DNA from: Candidatus Krumholzibacteriia bacterium
GTDB lineage: Bacteria; Krumholzibacteriota; Krumholzibacteriia; Krumholzibacteriales; Krumholzibacteriaceae
NCBI GenBank assembly: GCA_963836185.1
Contig: CAWIIQ010000001.1
Coordinates: forward strand, 736,001 to 800,000
DNA length: 64,000 nucleotides
Direction: 5' to 3'
Part shown: one piece after another, positions 54,100 through 61,946 of the stretch
Layout: the number at the start of each line of letters is the position of its first letter
Position numbering within the stretch: position 1 is the first letter of the stretch
Position numbers and translations under genes: made by a program
Notes under the pieces: generated by a model
What the model was told of the DNA's origin: nothing
What the model saw: the letters and a program-made list of their open reading frames with translations, nothing else
Database searches by the model: none

Positions 54100-55008
54100 C
54101 TATCCCGGAATAATGTAGGCCAGTGTCAGCAGGATGCCTGTGGCGAGGTGCGTGATGATCGTCAGGGCGTTCGCGGGCGTCATCGCGCCAGGGTCGTCGT
54201 GAGCGCGCGTGGCGACATGTATCGCCCTGAGCGCCAGCGGGAGTGTAGCCAGTCCGATCAGTGTCCAGCGAGGCATCAGGCCGGCCGCGGCGCCTGCTGC
54301 TATCGGTATGTAAGCCGACAGCATCACGACCGCGATACAGGACCCGGCCCTTTCCGGTGCCGAGCCGTACGACGAGGGTCTTCTTTCCCGTAGCTTTATC
54401 GGCGGCCGCGTCCTGGAACTCGTTTATGATGATGATCGCTGTGGTCATTATCGCGAGCGGGAGAGGGGCCACAAGTATCTGATGCGAAACTGTCCCTGTC
54501 TGTACGTAGTACGCTCCGACCGCGATAAGGCCGAAGGCGAGGAATATCGCTATCTCACCGAGTCCCCGGCCGGCGAGCATGGCGCGCGGCTCGGTATACA
54601 TGATCCCGAAGACAAGGCCGGTGATCCCGAAGAGTATTATTGCCGGGCCCCTTACGGTGTAGAGGTATATCCCGATCAGCGACGCGAGCGTGAAGAGGAC
54701 TGATCGAGAGTATGAGCACGCCCCGGGGAGTGACGAATCCCGCCTGGATCATCCTGCTGCCGCCTGTGAACGGGCTGGCGAAGTCGACGTTGGCTTCGTC
54801 GTTTCCCGACCTGTGATCGAACCAGTCGTTTATCGTGTTCGAGCCGAGGTGCAGGAGGATGGCTCCGGCTAGTGTCAGCGAGAAGAGAAGGGGATCCCAC
54901 AGCCCTGTCTCGTAACGCGCTATCGCGGCAGGCGAGCACGACGGGGAGGATACTGACGGTGAGGAACGGGGCCCTCAACTCGACAAGGTATGCCTGCAGC
55001 TTGTTCAC
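54100..55008 (-). CDS. menA: MenA-like UbiA family prenyltransferase (frameshifted)
   Basis: 'LRAPFL..S', 'NDWFD..SGND..N......FTGGSRMIQ', 'NEFQD...D...GKKTLVVRLG'. Confidence 0.8.
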
Positions 55009-55084: not shown

Positions 55085-55115
55085 AAAAAACCCGGAGCGC
55101 TTTTCGCGCTCCGGG
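55085..55115 (-). terminator. Second intrinsic terminator of the peptide transcript
   Basis: Minus strand: ACCCGGAGCGC-GAAAA-GCGCTCCGGGT-TTTTT. Confidence 0.88.
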
Positions 55116-55136
55116 TAACCGCGGGTCTATCGTTCC

Positions 55137-55170
55137 AAAAAAAAGGCGGGGCGCTTTCGCGTCCCGCCTT
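55137..55170 (-). terminator. First intrinsic terminator of the peptide transcript
   Basis: Minus strand: AAGGCGGGACGC-GAAA-GCGCCCCGCCTT-TTTTTT. Confidence 0.88.
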
Positions 55171-55184
55171 CAGAGTCTCTGGGT

Positions 55185-55265
55185 CTACCAGACGCTCTTG
55201 CCCCAGACGCTCTTGCCGGCGATCATGAGGGCTATGATCATCGCTATGCTTGTGAAGTGGAACAT
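55185..55265 (-). CDS. Uncalled 26-aa peptide MFHFTSIAMIIALMIAGKSVWGKSVW
   Basis: ATG at 55265 with SD AAAGGGG 6 nt upstream; TAG at 55187-55185. Dedicated promoter upstream and two terminators downstream. Too short for the supplied ORF track. Confidence 0.78.
   Translation of the reverse strand: MFHFTSIAMIIALMIAGKSVWGKSVW
55188..55217. repeat. Perfect 15-bp tandem repeat (x2) encoding GKSVW
   Basis: CCAGACGCTCTTGCC at 55188-55202 and 55203-55217. Confidence 0.95.
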
Positions 55266-55337
55266 TTTCAACCCCTTTCGTTGAGACTCTCAAAAGTTAC
55301 TTCGTATTTATCATCGTTCCTCATGCTTACCTGTAAT

Positions 55338-55353
55338 AGCCAGAGGCGTGCCA
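55338..55353 (-). promoter_or_regulatory. sigma54 (-24/-12) promoter
   Basis: Minus strand TGGCACGCCTCTGGCT versus consensus TGGCACG-N4-TTGCW (one mismatch); GG-N10-GC spacing is exact. Confidence 0.75.
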
Positions 55354-55390
55354 TAATTCCCAGTTGTTTCTCATATTGCATTAAGGCTTG

Positions 55391-55403
55391 TAAGTGATTG
55401 ATA
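55391..55403. promoter_or_regulatory. IHF binding site
   Basis: TAAGTGATTGATA, whose reverse complement TATCAATCACTTA exactly matches WATCAANNNNTTR. It lies between the sigma54 promoter and the upstream palindromes. Confidence 0.7.
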
Positions 55404-55470
55404 AATAAAGAAATAAAATGTCGCACTATTTCGCGAAATGAGCGATTATGGCCCGGCCGGTTTCGAGAAA

Positions 55471-55574
55471 TGTAAACATATATTTACACGCATTTCAGGA
55501 ATCCACATAACTTCAATATAAATATAGCGATAATGTGTAAACTGCAATTTACCTGTATGTAAACAAGAGTTTAC
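55471..55574. promoter_or_regulatory. Three palindromic enhancer-like sites (GTAAA-N6-TTTAC)
   Basis: 55472-55487 GTAAACATATATTTAC, 55537-55552 GTAAACTGCAATTTAC, 55559-55574 GTAAACAAGAGTTTAC; each is preceded by T. Confidence 0.75.
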
Positions 55575-57194: not shown

Positions 57195-58581
57195 CTATTT
57201 CTTGTACTGGCTGATGAACTCCTCGACCTCGGGGATGCCTCCCTGGTAGATCAGGTAGCCGTTGTGCGGCTCCCGCTCCGTGATCTCGCCCGCGATCGGG
57301 GTCAGCATGATCTTCTTGACCTCTTCGCGGTCCTCGCTCTGGCCGAGCGCCCATCCGAGCTTAACATACGCCACCTCGGGCAGCATGTTATAAGACGGTA
57401 TGACGCCGAGGTCCATCATGTCGCGCCCCGTGTCGTACACGTACATCTGTACGTAACCCCAGAGCGTCTGCACGGTCATGTATACTGAGATCCCCTCATC
57501 GTACGCCCTCTTGAGAGCGGGGTAGAGAGGCTTGTTGACGTGCCCGAGGCCTGTGCCTGCGATGACGATCCCCCTGTACCCGTTGTCTATCAGAGAATCG
57601 ATGATGTCGGGCTTCATGTTGGGGTAGTAGTAGACGATCGAGACGCGATCGTCGAAGGCCGTGTTGATCTTGACGTTCGTGTCTTTCCTGCGCTTCTTGA
57701 TGTCGCTGCGAAGCGGCGTGAACTTCTCGCGGTCGACCATTGCCAGCGGGATGTCGCCGATCGTCCTGAAGGTCGACCTGTACGACGAATGCATCTTGCG
57801 CACACGCGTTCCCCTGTGAAGCAGGGCGTACTGGTCGCTCGTGGGGCCGAACATGCAGACCATCACTTCGGCGTAGTCGCTGTAGGCTGCGGTGCGCGTC
57901 GCGTGTATCAGATTCAGCGCGGCGTCGCTCGACGGGCGGTCGCTCGAGCGCTGTGAGCCGACCATCACGATCGGAACGGGTGAGTCCTGGACCATGAAGG
58001 AGAGGATCGCCGCCGTGTGATGCATCGTATCTGTGCCGTGCCCGATGACTACGCCCGCTACGCCCTTTTCTATCTCCTCGCCGATCTTCTCCGGCCGTGC
58101 CTTTCCACTGCTCGGGGCCCATGTTCTCGCTGAAGACGCCGTACATCTTCTCGGTCTCGAGGTTGCAGACGTCGGCGAGCTCGGGAACGGAGCCGTAGAG
58201 CTCACCCGGGGTGAAGGCGGGGATGACCGCGCCGGTGCGGTAGTCGAGCCTCGAGGCGATCGTGCCGCCCGTGCCGAGGAGTTTTACCATCGGCTTTTTC
58301 GGATCGTAGGGGAATTCCTTCTCGGGGATCTTGTAGTGCGCCTCGCGCTTGCCGTGCGTGACCATCGATTCGATCGTGCCGACGGCCAGGCCGACGTTAT
58401 AGCCGGTGTCGAGCTTGAGCACGACGTGGTTGTTATCGGCGGTCTCGGACCTGGGGAGGATGATCCCCCTGAAATCACCGCGTGTCGAGTGGACCTCGAC
58501 GTCGAACCAGACGCCGGCTTCGAACTTCTTGAGGCACTCCAGCGCGTCGCCCATGTATCCCTTGTAGATATCGTCGCCCAC
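57195..58581 (-). CDS. gatD: Glu-tRNA(Gln) amidotransferase subunit D (frameshift near 58095)
   Basis: GatD N-terminal domain 'VVLKLDTGYNVG', then asparaginase-like 'TGGTIASRLDYRTGAV', 'HGTDTM', 'GSQRSSDRPSSDA', 'VRKMHSS.R'. Confidence 0.92.
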
Positions 58582-58605
58582 GTTAACCTTCCTTAGCGCC
58601 GCCTG

Positions 58606-60516
58606 TTAAGACGCTACGAAACGGCCCGCGAAGTCGAATGCCTCGCGGCCCGTGATATATCCCCTGAATTGTATCGCCAGCTGGCCGGTCAGGTATCTTA
58701 CCAGCTTGTCTTTCTCTATGTCGGGGAGCTCGACCGAACCGGCGAACTCCTTCATCTTCTTTTCGAGAGTCTTTTTATCGAGGACGTTGAAAGATTCCGC
58801 GGCCTCATCCGGCTCGATCCCTTCACCGCATGTCTTTCCCAGAAGGACTTCGAGGCTCAGCGCCGGCAACTTCTTTTTGCCGGCCGCGGTGATGGTCCCG
58901 ACGAACGCCTCGTCGCTGCATTCCGGCACGCCGTCGCGGCGGCGCAGCCTGCGCATCCCTCTGAGCAGCAGCTCAGCCACGGTCAGCGGCGCGAACTCAG
59001 TCTCCGCTACGGCCGCGTCGAACGCGTACCTGCGTTTCGAGATGCTCATCCTTCGCGCCGTTTCCCTGTCGAGCCCCATCTCTTCATATCTTTTCTGCCT
59101 GTCCCACGGAAGCTCGGCGAGGTTCGACCTGATCCTCTCGATGCGATCCTCGGTGATGGCGATCGGAGGGAGGTCCGTATCGGGATACATCCTGTTCGGA
59201 CCGGGCAGTATCCTCTCGAAACCGTTCGTCCCGTCGGCCAGGGCCTGCCTGGTCTCGTCGGGAATGCCGACAGTCGCCTCTTTCGCTCTTAACGCGATCT
59301 CACTGATAGCCATCTTCGCGTCTTCCTTGCTGCCCCATACGACGACTACCACATCGTCACCGGTCGTCTTCGAGTGTTTCTTGATCTTCGTCCACTCAGC
59401 GCTCGAGAATGTCTCGCCTTCGCTGTCGGAGTGAGCGATATTGGGCAGGATGTCGAGGCAGGCGACGACGCGCACCCTGTCGGATATCTCCTTCGAGAAT
59501 GTCGTCTCGGGTTGAGTCTTCGTCGGCAGGATGCCGCTGAAACCGCGCAGCACGACAGCGTGGACCTGAAGGCCCGACTTCAGCGCCTTCGAAACGGGAT
59601 AATATTGAGTTCCCTTGAGGACGTTGGTGACCTCTACCGAGTCGAACTTGAATGTCCCCTCCGTGATACCCTTCTTGTTGAGCCGGTCCCTTATCTCGAG
59701 CAGCGCGAGCTGCCTGAACGCCTCGTTATGTACGAGAAGCGGGATCATCGGGATGCGGGGCACGCCCTTAATCTCTATCCTGCGCCCGCCGGCGACCGAG
59801 ACGTTTACGTCCTGCCTCGTACGGCCGAGGCCGGTGCGGACCTTGCCTGTCGAGCGGGTAAGGTGCCTGATGACCTGCGCCACATCGGCAACTTCCTGCG
59901 GGGTGCGCATCTCGGGGTAAGTGACGGTCTCGATAAGGGGGATGCCGAGACGGTCGGTCCTGTAGACGCGGTCATGGCCGATATCGGTGATCTCGCGGCA
60001 GGCGTCCTCCTCGAGCCCGAGCTGGATGATACCGATCCGGCGGTCGCCGTACGGTATCGAGCCGTCGACGCCGAGGATCGTAGTCCGTTGAAAGCCTGTC
60101 GGGATCGATCCGTCGAGGTATTGTTTTCTCGCTATGTGGACCTCGCTGACGAGCTTGCAGCCGAGCAGCATAGTGATTTCGAGCGCGATGTCGAGCGCCT
60201 GCAGATTGAGCTCGAAGGGCGGCGTGTCATCCATCTCGTAGGTACAGACCGTTTCCTTGTTTATCTGGTATATGATGTTTTTCTTTGTCTTGAACTCCAT
60301 CAGGGCGGTTCCATCGTACTCGCCCAGTTCGGAGAGTGTGGGCCTCATGTGGCGGAGGATCTGCGCGTCGAACTCTTCGCTGTAGGGACGAATCGGGCAG
60401 CGGCAGAAGAGCTTCTTCTCAGTGTCAAGTTGCTGGTGTATCTCGAGGCCGCTCTTCATACCTATCGCCTGGTAGTCCTCGAGCGTCATCTCGCCAAGTT
60501 GTCGGAATTCGATCAC
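58606..60516 (-). CDS. gatE: Glu-tRNA(Gln) amidotransferase subunit E
   Basis: 'DYQAIGMKSGLEIHQQLDT.KKLFC.CP', 'DGSIPTGFQRT', 'LEEDACR', 'DRLGIPLIE', 'RQDVNVS', AspRS-like insert, 'P.ETR....DG...F.R.LPG..RMYPDTD.PP'. GTG at 60516 after a GGGAG RBS. Confidence 0.93.
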   Translation of the reverse strand: MIEFRQLGEMTLEDYQAIGMKSGLEIHQQLDTEKKLFCRCPIRPYSEEFDAQILRHMRPTLSELGEYDGTALMEFKTKKNIIYQINKETVCTYEMDDTPPFELNLQALDIALEITMLLGCKLVSEVHIARKQYLDGSIPTGFQRTTILGVDGSIPYGDRRIGIIQLGLEEDACREITDIGHDRVYRTDRLGIPLIETVTYPEMRTPQEVADVAQVIRHLTRSTGKVRTGLGRTRQDVNVSVAGGRRIEIKGVPRIPMIPLLVHNEAFRQLALLEIRDRLNKKGITEGTFKFDSVEVTNVLKGTQYYPVSKALKSGLQVHAVVLRGFSGILPTKTQPETTFSKEISDRVRVVACLDILPNIAHSDSEGETFSSAEWTKIKKHSKTTGDDVVVVVWGSKEDAKMAISEIALRAKEATVGIPDETRQALADGTNGFERILPGPNRMYPDTDLPPIAITEDRIERIRSNLAELPWDRQKRYEEMGLDRETARRMSISKRRYAFDAAVAETEFAPLTVAELLLRGMRRLRRRDGVPECSDEAFVGTITAAGKKKLPALSLEVLLGKTCGEGIEPDEAAESFNVLDKKTLEKKMKEFAGSVELPDIEKDKLVRYLTGQLAIQFRGYITGREAFDFAGRFVAS

Positions 60517-60536
60517 CCGTTGCTCCCTTCCCTTTA

Positions 60537-61946
60537 TCAGCAGTCGAGGTAGAGCTGGACCTCGAGCGGATGGGTGCGGTTTCGCACCGGCCATACGTCC
60601 TTGTCAAATTTCAATGCGATCCAGTCCTCGATCATCGTCGCGTCGAAGACGTCGCCCTGCAGGAGGAACTCGTGATCCCTCTCCAGTTCACGCAGCGCCT
60701 CGGCGAGCGAGCCGGGCAGAGCCTTGATCTTTCCGCGCTCCTCCGGAGTCATCTCGAAGACGTTTACCTCAAGCGGTCCGAACCCGAGTTCCTTCGGGTC
60801 GAGCTTGTTGCGGATACCGTCGATCCCGGCCATCAGCTGGGCGGCCATCGAGAGGTAGATGTTTCCAGTCGCGTCGGGGGGCCTGAACTCGAGCCTCTTC
60901 TTCTCCGGCGTAGAGGCATATTTCGGGATCCTGATAGCGGCCGACCTGTTGCCGAGCGAGAAGAAGGCGTTGACCGGCGCCTCGAAACCGGGCACGAGAC
61001 GTTTGTACGAGTTCGTGCTCGGGTTGGTCAGTGCGAGCAGTGCGGGGGAGTGGTGGAGCAGCCCGGCGATATACTGGAGCGCCGTTTTGCTCAGCCCCGC
61101 GTAACCCGCCTTGCTGTAGAAGAGGGGCTTGCCCTTCTTGAAGAGGTGCTGGTGGAAGTGCATCCCGTTGCCCGCTTCGTTATGTATCGGCTTGGGCATG
61201 AATGTCGCGATCATCCCCGCCTCGTCGGCGGCCATGCGCACGAAATATTTTACGATCATCGAGATGTCGCCCATCTTCGTCAGCGGCGCGAACTCGACCT
61301 CGATCTCGCCCTGGCCGTGGCCGCCTACCTCGTGATGGTGATACTTGATGCCGATGCCCGCTTCCTCGAGCAGGACGACGGTGCGGTCACGCACGCCGGC
61401 GAGCTTGTCCTCGGGGGGCAGGGCGTGGTATCCGGCGTGTGTCTTCAGCCCGAAGCTTCCCTTGTTCTCGCCTTCACGCGGGATGATCTCGTAGCCGAAA
61501 CTGAGGTTCGATGTGTCTACGAGGACCTCGTCGAATATGTAGTACTCGAACTCCGGCCCCCACATCGAGACGTCTGCGATCGCAGTCTTCTTCAGAAAGG
61601 CCTCGGCCTTGCGCGCGATGTGTCTCGGGTCGCGGGGGAATGGTTTTTTCGAGTCTGCCTCTACGATGTCGCATATGAAGCATGCCGTAGGGACCTTGCT
61701 GAACGGATCGACGAACCCGGTCGAGAGGTCGGGGACGAGGGAGAGGTCGCCCAGCTCGACCGTCTTGAGGCCGGCGAAGTTCGAGCCGTCGAACCCGAGG
61801 CCTTCCGAGAAAAGCTTGCTGCCGGCGTTCGACGCCGGGACGGTCAGGCGGTGCCAGCGACCGAGATAATCGGTGAACTTGAGGTCGATCAGCTTGATGC
61901 CTTGCCGCTTTATCTCAGACTTGAGTTTCGTGATAGAGGTAAAGAT
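60537..61946 (-). CDS. glnA: Glutamine synthetase type I
   Basis: One open frame of 469 codons: 'IDLKFTD..GRW', 'FDGS', 'GPEFEYY', 'HHHEV', 'TFMPKP', 'GNGMH.H', 'NSYKRLVPGFEAP', 'NRSAAIRIP', 'EFRPPD'. The first codon is ATC. Confidence 0.93.
   Translation of the reverse strand: MFTSITKLKSEIKRQGIKLIDLKFTDYLGRWHRLTVPASNAGSKLFSEGLGFDGSNFAGLKTVELGDLSLVPDLSTGFVDPFSKVPTACFICDIVEADSKKPFPRDPRHIARKAEAFLKKTAIADVSMWGPEFEYYIFDEVLVDTSNLSFGYEIIPREGENKGSFGLKTHAGYHALPPEDKLAGVRDRTVVLLEEAGIGIKYHHHEVGGHGQGEIEVEFAPLTKMGDISMIVKYFVRMAADEAGMIATFMPKPIHNEAGNGMHFHQHLFKKGKPLFYSKAGYAGLSKTALQYIAGLLHHSPALLALTNPSTNSYKRLVPGFEAPVNAFFSLGNRSAAIRIPKYASTPEKKRLEFRPPDATGNIYLSMAAQLMAGIDGIRNKLDPKELGFGPLEVNVFEMTPEERGKIKALPGSLAEALRELERDHEFLLQGDVFDATMIEDWIALKFDKDVWPVRNRTHPLEVQLYLDC

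Follow-up and report, generated by a model that had tools for sequence, protein, structure and literature searches.

What is the function of a 26-residue peptide, ending in two copies of the pentapeptide GKSVW, whose gene appears to be governed by an enhancer-dependent sigma54 promoter of its own? The question is raised by a stretch of the window, by which we mean the whole 64,000-nucleotide piece of DNA analysed here, from a Candidatus Krumholzibacteriia bacterium. The original prediction had described, in order, palindromes, an IHF site, a promoter, a Shine-Dalgarno sequence, the ORF and hairpins, and all of these elements are found on the minus strand, within 55085..55574:

55559..55574, minus strand: putative activator-binding palindrome 1, GTAAA-N6-TTTAC; position kept in relatives
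55537..55552, minus strand: putative activator-binding palindrome 2, GTAAA-N6-TTTAC; 21-23 bases past palindrome 1 in relatives
55472..55487, minus strand: putative activator-binding palindrome 3, GTAAA-N6-TTTAC; ends 119 bases before the -24 element
55391..55403, minus strand: IHF-consensus site, a match to WATCAA-N4-TTR between enhancer and promoter; column block partly conserved
55338..55353, minus strand: sigma54 -24/-12 promoter, TGGCAC-N5-TGGCT (GG-N10-GC); conserved in relatives
55272..55278, minus strand: Shine-Dalgarno sequence AAAGGGG; a purine-rich one also precedes the homologues
55185..55265, minus strand: micropeptide ORF of 26 aa, MFHFTSIAMIIALMIAGKSVWGKSVW and a stop codon; a 16-residue hydrophobic segment followed by (GKSVW)2
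55137..55170, minus strand: intrinsic terminator 1, a GC-rich hairpin with a T run; in most homologues a hairpin with a T run follows the gene
55085..55115, minus strand: second terminator-like hairpin with a T run; not constant, one relative being without 71 bases there

These elements, when taken together, present the features of an enhancer-dependent sigma54 promoter: a GG-N10-GC core; distant upstream palindromes with an IHF match lying between; and, elsewhere in the genome, an rpoN gene scoring above its cut-off, three genes of the HU/IHF family and AAA+ activators (17 sigma54 activator ORFs). Transcription would start near 55327. The TGGCAC of the -24 element is invariant in 8/8 aligned rows, and the -12 element reads TGGCT, not TTGCW. 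Perfect palindromes with the N6 spacer number 11 in the whole 3.5 Mb genome, three of them at the peptide locus; as a control, the other spacers from 3 to 10 yield 0-5 perfect palindromes each, and two or more palindromes arose in 0 of 3000 dinucleotide shuffles of the peptide region. Given these spacer counts and shuffles, the palindrome set is more than chance would provide. Two elements are less uniform among relatives: the IHF site is perfect in the window but degenerate in most relatives, and of the two strong terminators the first recurs after most homologues, whereas the second is not a constant feature. A polysaccharide flippase gene flanks the peptide gene on one side and a menA-like gene on the other.

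A DNA search with the locus found matches in 29 of 61 genomes; in each of the 20 loci fetched, the encoded peptide retains an unaltered GKSVWGKSVW. When species genomes were scanned for the repeat pattern, 46 loci came up, mostly titled Candidatus Krumholzibacteriota or unnamed bacteria; three of these (L053, L054 and L061) are chance repeats and were dropped. The remaining 43 hold 46 genes, which amount to 44 different DNA sequences and 37 different peptides. Since the scan selects for the repeat, invariance of the repeat in this set is circular, and it is the codon variation that is informative. Across the 46 genes silent changes occur at the Gly, Lys, Ser and Val codons, Ser being encoded by both AGY and TCG, and the stop codons vary. 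Further, the two repeat units are identical in DNA in only three of the 46 genes and different in 43, and the identical peptide is encoded in two other genomes (L022 and L044); hence, the 15-bp duplication is genuine and not an assembly artefact.

A profile search located the gene in 71 of 181 genomes of the phylum, or 70 after the removal of one chance match; two weak HMM matches, in G039 C1 and G113, proved to be chance and were dropped. By family, the gene is present in 31/34 relatives in f1, 1/1 in f2, 8/8 in f3, 18/21 in f6 and 11/12 in f9, and the same search yielded no credible peptide gene in f4, f5, f7 and f8. The reading frame is maintained across these five families, with the unit varying as GKAVW, GKAIW, GKSTW or GNSTW, or occurring in single-unit forms. 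A protein search gathered at least 196 clusters at 90% identity, and in the 121 sequences read the repeat number ranges from 2 to 7 (one unit in two further genes), the units being nearly identical and the residues preceding the first unit varying widely. The N-terminus is devoid of basic residues in the window's order; the f6 and f9 peptides start with MK or MR. Tandem duplicates of the gene also occur. Second or reduced copies with one unit or an interrupted repeat are seen at L116:8619-8696, L106:3221-3310 and L115:8040-8102, each with its own promoter and palindromes.

No family in Pfam or NCBIfam matches the peptide, and none of the 120 clusters listed has a Pfam domain; a search of the ESM Atlas gave no usable match either, an outcome that carries no weight. 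The earlier description of the ORF as unannotated is borne out to this extent, but many homologues are picked up by gene callers, under the name 'hypothetical protein' where one is given, save for one stray transporter label. Among longer proteins the profile matched one, a mis-started copy, which is weak evidence given that only 7998 candidates were scored. A metagenome pattern scan for three G-x-S-x-W units gave 119 stretches, mostly low-complexity noise with four true family members, and three pattern matches in viral contigs were rejected as chance. Judged by its conservation, the ORF is a real gene and typifies an undescribed micropeptide family; neither the peptide nor its activator is described in the literature searched, which included few subscription papers, and no ligand of MASE9 is reported there. 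The original view of an undescribed, tightly controlled peptide gene in its own sigma54 unit is thus upheld by all the comparisons it had proposed, with the frame, promoter and terminator conserved in relatives alongside synonymous variation and a variable repeat number.

A transcript of the gene is weakly supported by RNA contigs, assembled from three runs (X1-X3; 4-6% of words) that had been selected for containing the peptide stretch. In X3 a 151-base contig at 55184-55310, within the predicted transcript, is the only long piece across 19.5 kb, and in X1 a contig extends from 55267 into menA. A contig of X2 also spans the promoter and enhancer, which indicates that DNA or read-through is present in the RNA data.

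Which regulator, then, recognizes the palindromes? They most likely belong to a single activator with a GAF-AAA+-HTH_8 (Fis) architecture and no TPR, the orthologue of which in the window genome lies at G000 C2:220496-222145. Activator and peptide occur together in 66 of 181 genomes, the peptide alone in four and the activator alone in five (three matches in the paralogue range being excluded from the count); this co-distribution represents one evolutionary event, and kin are not independent. In f6 and f9 the activator gene lies within the peptide locus in 21/22 loci, directly downstream of the peptide gene in the maps; in the window's order it does so in 0/39. In the window genome a sigma54 site, with the same palindromes upstream of it, precedes the activator gene as well; here, as in 3/3 congeners, one further palindrome follows closely on the downstream side of the promoter. 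In six more genera or genomes within the family the palindrome set lies 0.7-1.1 kb upstream of the activator with no peptide ORF, and 10 of the 19 regions upstream of the activator (1.1 kb or less) have no palindrome set. The exact palindrome-spacer-promoter pattern gave 15 matches in 8 of 10 genomes, nine at peptide genes, six upstream of the activator and none elsewhere, and the reversed control gave none. From this distribution we infer that the activator binds the palindromes and controls its own gene too. What is new here is a family of micropeptides that has, in an uncultured phylum, a sigma54 activator nearly dedicated to it and a putative binding site for that activator.

The neighborhoods of sigma54 activators and sites hold further elements. 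Long leaders at L336, L339, L347 and L350 connect a three-palindrome sigma54 promoter to the GAF activator gene and have a GAGAGTTRGATTCTC stretch in common; devoid of a peptide ORF, these leaders are possibly a small RNA or leader element. A sigma54 site and one imperfect palindrome precede the gene at G000 C1:2100528-2101890 (minus strand), which presumably encodes an MglA-like GTPase and does not match the stricter palindrome-spacer-promoter pattern. Large TPR-containing sigma54 activators are encoded at G000 C1:968535-973166, C1:1225670-1228738 and C2:223091-225547, one of them divergent from the GAF activator gene.

Two described regulators invite comparison. The TyrR box is TGTAAA-N6-TTTACA; it has the same core palindrome, and the helix-turn-helix of the activator shows a weak match to HTH_50 (E 0.00075, below the cut-off). 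However, the activator reaches only 261.6 bits against the TyrR cut-off of 576, has a GAF domain in place of ACT-PAS and would act at a -24/-12 promoter. The second comparison is with the PEP-CTERM/PrsK-PrsR regulon, in which the predicted PrsR motif ends in TTTACA and lies 32-92 bases before the promoter (PMC1569441). The two are alike in that a sigma54 unit of one gene is preceded by a motif that ends in TTTAC(A), and they differ in the spacer, 119 bases at the peptide locus versus 32-92. Further, the micropeptide does not show the PEP motif, helix and basic tail by which PEP-CTERM proteins are recognized, and it finds no NCBIfam match. The window genome does possess PrsR, a PrsK-like kinase, an exosortase-like ORF and a PEP-CTERM gene. 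We rejected PrsR as the activator on the combined grounds of the 119-base spacer, the PEP-CTERM gene of the window genome, which has no such palindrome upstream, and the failure to find PrsR in 39 of 70 peptide genomes (it is present in 0/21 f6 and 2/12 f9 genomes, though with eight candidates scored per genome misses are possible). The set itself lies at G000 C1:237390-245883 (minus strand) and comprises PrsR, a kinase, an exosortase-like ORF and the PEP-CTERM gene, the last behind a sigma54 site of its own, all in an uncultured phylum.

As to what the peptide might act upon, the candidate target in the window genome is a MASE9-HD-GYP gene (G000 C2:208710-210023), whose product matches PF20972 (32.9 bits against a cut-off of 24.3) and HD_5 (119.7 bits) and in which the HD and HHE..GYP stretch is readable. 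By these two domains it belongs to the MASE9-HD-GYP phosphodiesterases (TM1467, HdgA); the paper defining MASE9 suggests that a ligand binds inside the membrane but does not name one, and its main text is without the words 'peptide', 'upstream' and 'neighbor' (10.1101/2021.11.05.467447). Three GGDEF and six HD_5 matches in the window genome indicate that c-di-GMP signalling is in place. MASE9 is more widely distributed than the peptide (119 of 181 genomes of the phylum) and is present in 62/70 peptide genomes. In f6 and f9 the peptide gene lies 4-8 kb downstream of the MASE9-HD-GYP gene, within the same locus as fetched in 11/22, a linkage that may simply reflect a gene order inherited around argS-purM; the two are unlinked in the window's order (0/39 loci).

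A further connection emerges from three families without a GKSVW gene (f4, f7 and f8), where a mini-ORF stands just before MASE9 in 38 of 39 loci. These mini-ORFs are led by a Shine-Dalgarno sequence, hydrophobic and terminate in Lys/Arg-x-x-Trp or Lys/Arg-Trp (e.g., MLDFILGLFYKWEW, MFKFIFDLFFGDLLLTKTWW and MFWVLGSKVKW), and most are preceded by AGCGGA repeats. In the GKSVW lineages a Trp-ended mini-ORF precedes MASE9 in 0/32 loci (one gene start being uncertain), and, unlike the leader mini-ORFs, the peptide gene is nowhere directly upstream of the MASE9 gene, either in the window's order or in f6 and f9. Instead, a sigma54-like site is found about 80-100 bases before MASE9 in 12/15 loci of the window's order and in the window genome, with no palindromes of the peptide-locus type. 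In the MASE9 tree a single branch (94/93, not starred) separates the GKSVW lineages from the rest; thus, the loss of the leader and the gain of the sigma54 gene amount to a single event rather than 70 observations. When the mini-ORFs are compared with the GKSVW peptides, shuffles that leave the last four residues in place score equally well in 3 to 99 of 100 cases, and the mini-ORFs are not matched by the peptide HMM; as far as the residues themselves go, the likeness shown is limited to a hydrophobic start and a Lys-x-x-Trp end. The Trp-rich leader ORFs could also be attenuator peptides rather than ligands. As a group in their own right, the Trp-ended mini-ORFs (L241-L259, L280-L298 and L300:2670-2756) are conserved, unannotated and directly upstream of MASE9-HD-GYP genes.

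The MASE9 domain itself was modelled with AlphaFold (L267:794-1489; 63-row alignment), giving a pLDDT of 86.6 and a pTM of 0.84. The top 14 structural matches of the model are all ECF S-components (Z 11.1-15.5; the best over 188 residues at 3.1 A), the first match outside this transporter family and MreD falling to Z 6.8, on a scale where helical bundles reach high Z by chance. A Foldseek search with the model gave no match at E 0.001 or better, its top rows again being S-components, and a PDB sequence search with the MASE9 profile gave none. The model predicts an ECF S-component fold for MASE9. S-components bind small ligands, in a pocket that opens outward.

We propose as the best explanation, with confidence evenly balanced between acceptance and doubt, that a GAF-activated sigma54 micropeptide inserts in the inner membrane, binds the MASE9 domain of an HD-GYP phosphodiesterase and alters c-di-GMP. 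Briefly, a signal would switch on the GAF activator, which, seated on the palindromes and aided by IHF bending, would allow sigma54 to fire both the peptide gene and the activator gene. The resulting mRNA of about 190 bases would yield the 26-residue peptide; once in the inner membrane, its Lys-x-x-Trp units might engage MASE9, with the Lys-x-x-Trp end docking in the predicted S-component-like pocket, and alter phosphodiesterase activity. The altered c-di-GMP might then change attachment or motility. In evolutionary terms, the GKSVW gene would have replaced the mini-ORF that sister lineages keep before MASE9-HD-GYP, bringing the ligand under sigma54 control. One consideration counts against the docking step. 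By the positive-inside rule basic residues favour the cytoplasmic side, and the two C-terminal lysines, with no N-terminal charge, thus suggest for the window's order a tail on the cytoplasmic side, while the S-component pocket opens outward.

By analogy, the peptide would work like the small membrane regulators of sensors, although it belongs to none of the described families tested. MgrB and SafA, small membrane peptides that regulate PhoQ, resemble it in their single short hydrophobic helix, their own inducible promoter and the action on a membrane sensor domain that we propose. They differ in that the proposed target of the micropeptide is a c-di-GMP enzyme rather than a histidine kinase, and in its tandem Trp pentapeptide units, its sigma54 promoter with a GAF activator and its want of a family match.

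Comparable arrangements are seen in other phyla. In the two best plasmid-collection matches, from Natranaerobius and Nonomuraea, the gene is preceded by a mini-ORF that is hydrophobic and has a Trp close to its end; MASE9 is confirmed in the Natranaerobius gene, and that of Nonomuraea is an HD-GYP homologue with no MASE9 match at the cut-off used. Among the Acidobacteriota, MASE9 occurs in 22 of 151 sampled genomes, and in 12 of 30 of their MASE9 loci (1.5 kb flanks) an upstream ORF has a tail of Trp units (e.g., GDGALW, SDAMLW and IIVWGE), S8 peptidases accounting for 9/10 of those scanned; several loci also have mini-ORFs such as MSKLIIWGE. None of the long ORFs of the window genome passes a looser Trp-repeat test, and viral contigs have no MASE9 relative. 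The literature searched does not describe the Trp-motif mini-ORFs, the subtilase tails or the S-component-like fold of MASE9.

A broader reading is that MASE9 is an S-component-derived peptide receptor and that Trp-ended motifs are its ligands across phyla, giving a peptide-to-c-di-GMP route, possibly between cells, in a bacterium with two membranes; this we offer tentatively, suspecting that it is somewhat more apt to fail than to hold. Delivery of the ligand would take the form of leader mini-peptides, subtilase repeat tails, or a stand-alone repeat micropeptide with a self-amplifying sigma54 activator. The known inputs of membrane c-di-GMP sensors are few, and for MASE9, a domain without a known ligand, the peptide supplies a short, synthesizable candidate. 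The putative rule of a Trp-ended mini-ORF or subtilase tail beside the MASE9 gene could be applied to culturable hosts (Natranaerobius, Nonomuraea and Acidobacteriota).

Beside these loci we noted the following. S8 peptidase loci with Trp tails (L305, L310-L312, L314, L319, L320 and L326-L330) in some cases continue with a mini-ORF in which the unit of the tail recurs. AGCGGA repeats within what appears to be a hairpin are common to Krumholzibacteriota and Natranaerobius, and Rfam gave no match in 10 MASE9-leader loci. An unnamed protein with no Pfam match precedes the MASE9 gene both at L067:2571-3506 and in Natranaerobius at L300:1813-2475 (E 2e-14), and is possibly a third part of the MASE9 module.

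The alternative that fares best, unlikely yet deserving serious attention, dispenses with MASE9. Here the peptide would be anchored in the membrane with its GKSVW tail inside, where it would bind or sequester its own GAF activator, forming a two-gene loop; PspA sequesters PspF in a comparable manner. The activator is indeed the tightest genomic partner of the peptide gene, the regulon seems limited to these two with no further output gene found, and the C-terminal lysines favour a cytoplasmic tail. Yet selection would hardly favour a loop that lacks an output, and such feedback leaves unexplained both the absence of the mini-ORF before MASE9 in exactly the GKSVW lineages and the Trp-motif partners of MASE9 in other phyla.

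We consider it quite unlikely that the peptide is a small membrane protein with some other partner or a structural role, such as a subunit or modulator of an envelope complex, the MASE9 pattern being a coincidence of descent. That this pattern is a single event and that homology to the MASE9 leader peptides is not demonstrable speak for this possibility, as does the high output suggested by the strong dedicated promoter and terminator; but no candidate partner accompanies the gene in both neighborhoods, and the invariant Lys-x-x-Trp end matches that of the MASE9-linked peptides.

Decidedly improbable, in our estimate, is an exported pheromone precursor of the Phr or SHP kind, in which a hydrophobic signal would direct export, a protease would free the GKSVW units, and these would be re-imported to meet a cytoplasmic receptor. 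Like the Rap-Phr and Rgg-SHP (RRNPP) systems, the locus encodes a tiny precursor, hydrophobic at its N-terminus and ending in a short conserved motif, next to a regulator gene; the repeat number varies while the units are nearly identical, the f6 and f9 peptides begin with MK or MR in the manner of signal peptides, a rhomboid gene lies within 30/39 loci of the window's order, and the genome encodes sigma54 activators that contain TPRs. Set against this, the adjacent regulator is a GAF-AAA+-Fis protein with no TPR, the host has two membranes, and no TPR receptor, peptide permease, importer or protease is common to both neighborhoods (the rhomboid gene occurs in 0/22 f6 and f9 loci). In the window's order the N-terminus is without a basic residue, and the residues ahead of the first unit vary widely. 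The Phr-like logic of the original prediction, taken strictly, is not supported, the linked regulator not being of the TPR/RRNPP type.

The other possibility it had raised, a RiPP precursor with repeated Trp-ended cores (bearing a Trp-Lys crosslink or Trp prenylation), fares worse still, and we regard it as very improbable. The W-G-K and K-x-x-W motifs that the peptide contains are reminiscent of radical-SAM RiPPs, and in the window's order a UbiA-family prenyltransferase (37/39) and an SPL-like radical SAM gene (18/39) lie nearby. However, the prenyltransferase passes the MenA cut-off (TIGR00751, 115.6 against 102.15 bits), the menA-like gene is reversed in orientation in f3, both genes are found in 0/22 f6 and f9 loci, and the peptide gene is closed by its own terminator; the prediction is not supported, no modifying enzyme or transporter being common to both neighborhoods.

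Finally, although sigma54 units with an sRNA output are known and the window does contain assembly indel errors, in menA and gatD, it is hardly credible that the transcript acts as a small RNA or that the repeat is an artefact, in view of the silent codon variation, the invariant residues and the frame kept in five families, of Rfam returning at the peptide locus six weak matches, all far below the gathering scores, and of an RNA folding z of -1.86 that is mostly due to the terminator.

Two observations concern the genes around the locus. The menA-like (54109-55008, minus strand) and gatD-like (57195-58581, minus strand) genes are split over frames in the window yet intact in relatives, which is consistent with assembly indels. 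Further, GatD- and GatE-like genes (with a GatB_N match) at 57195-60594 of the window (minus strand) are conserved beside the peptide gene in the window's order; we take these to encode an archaeal-type Glu-tRNA(Gln) amidotransferase in a bacterial genome.
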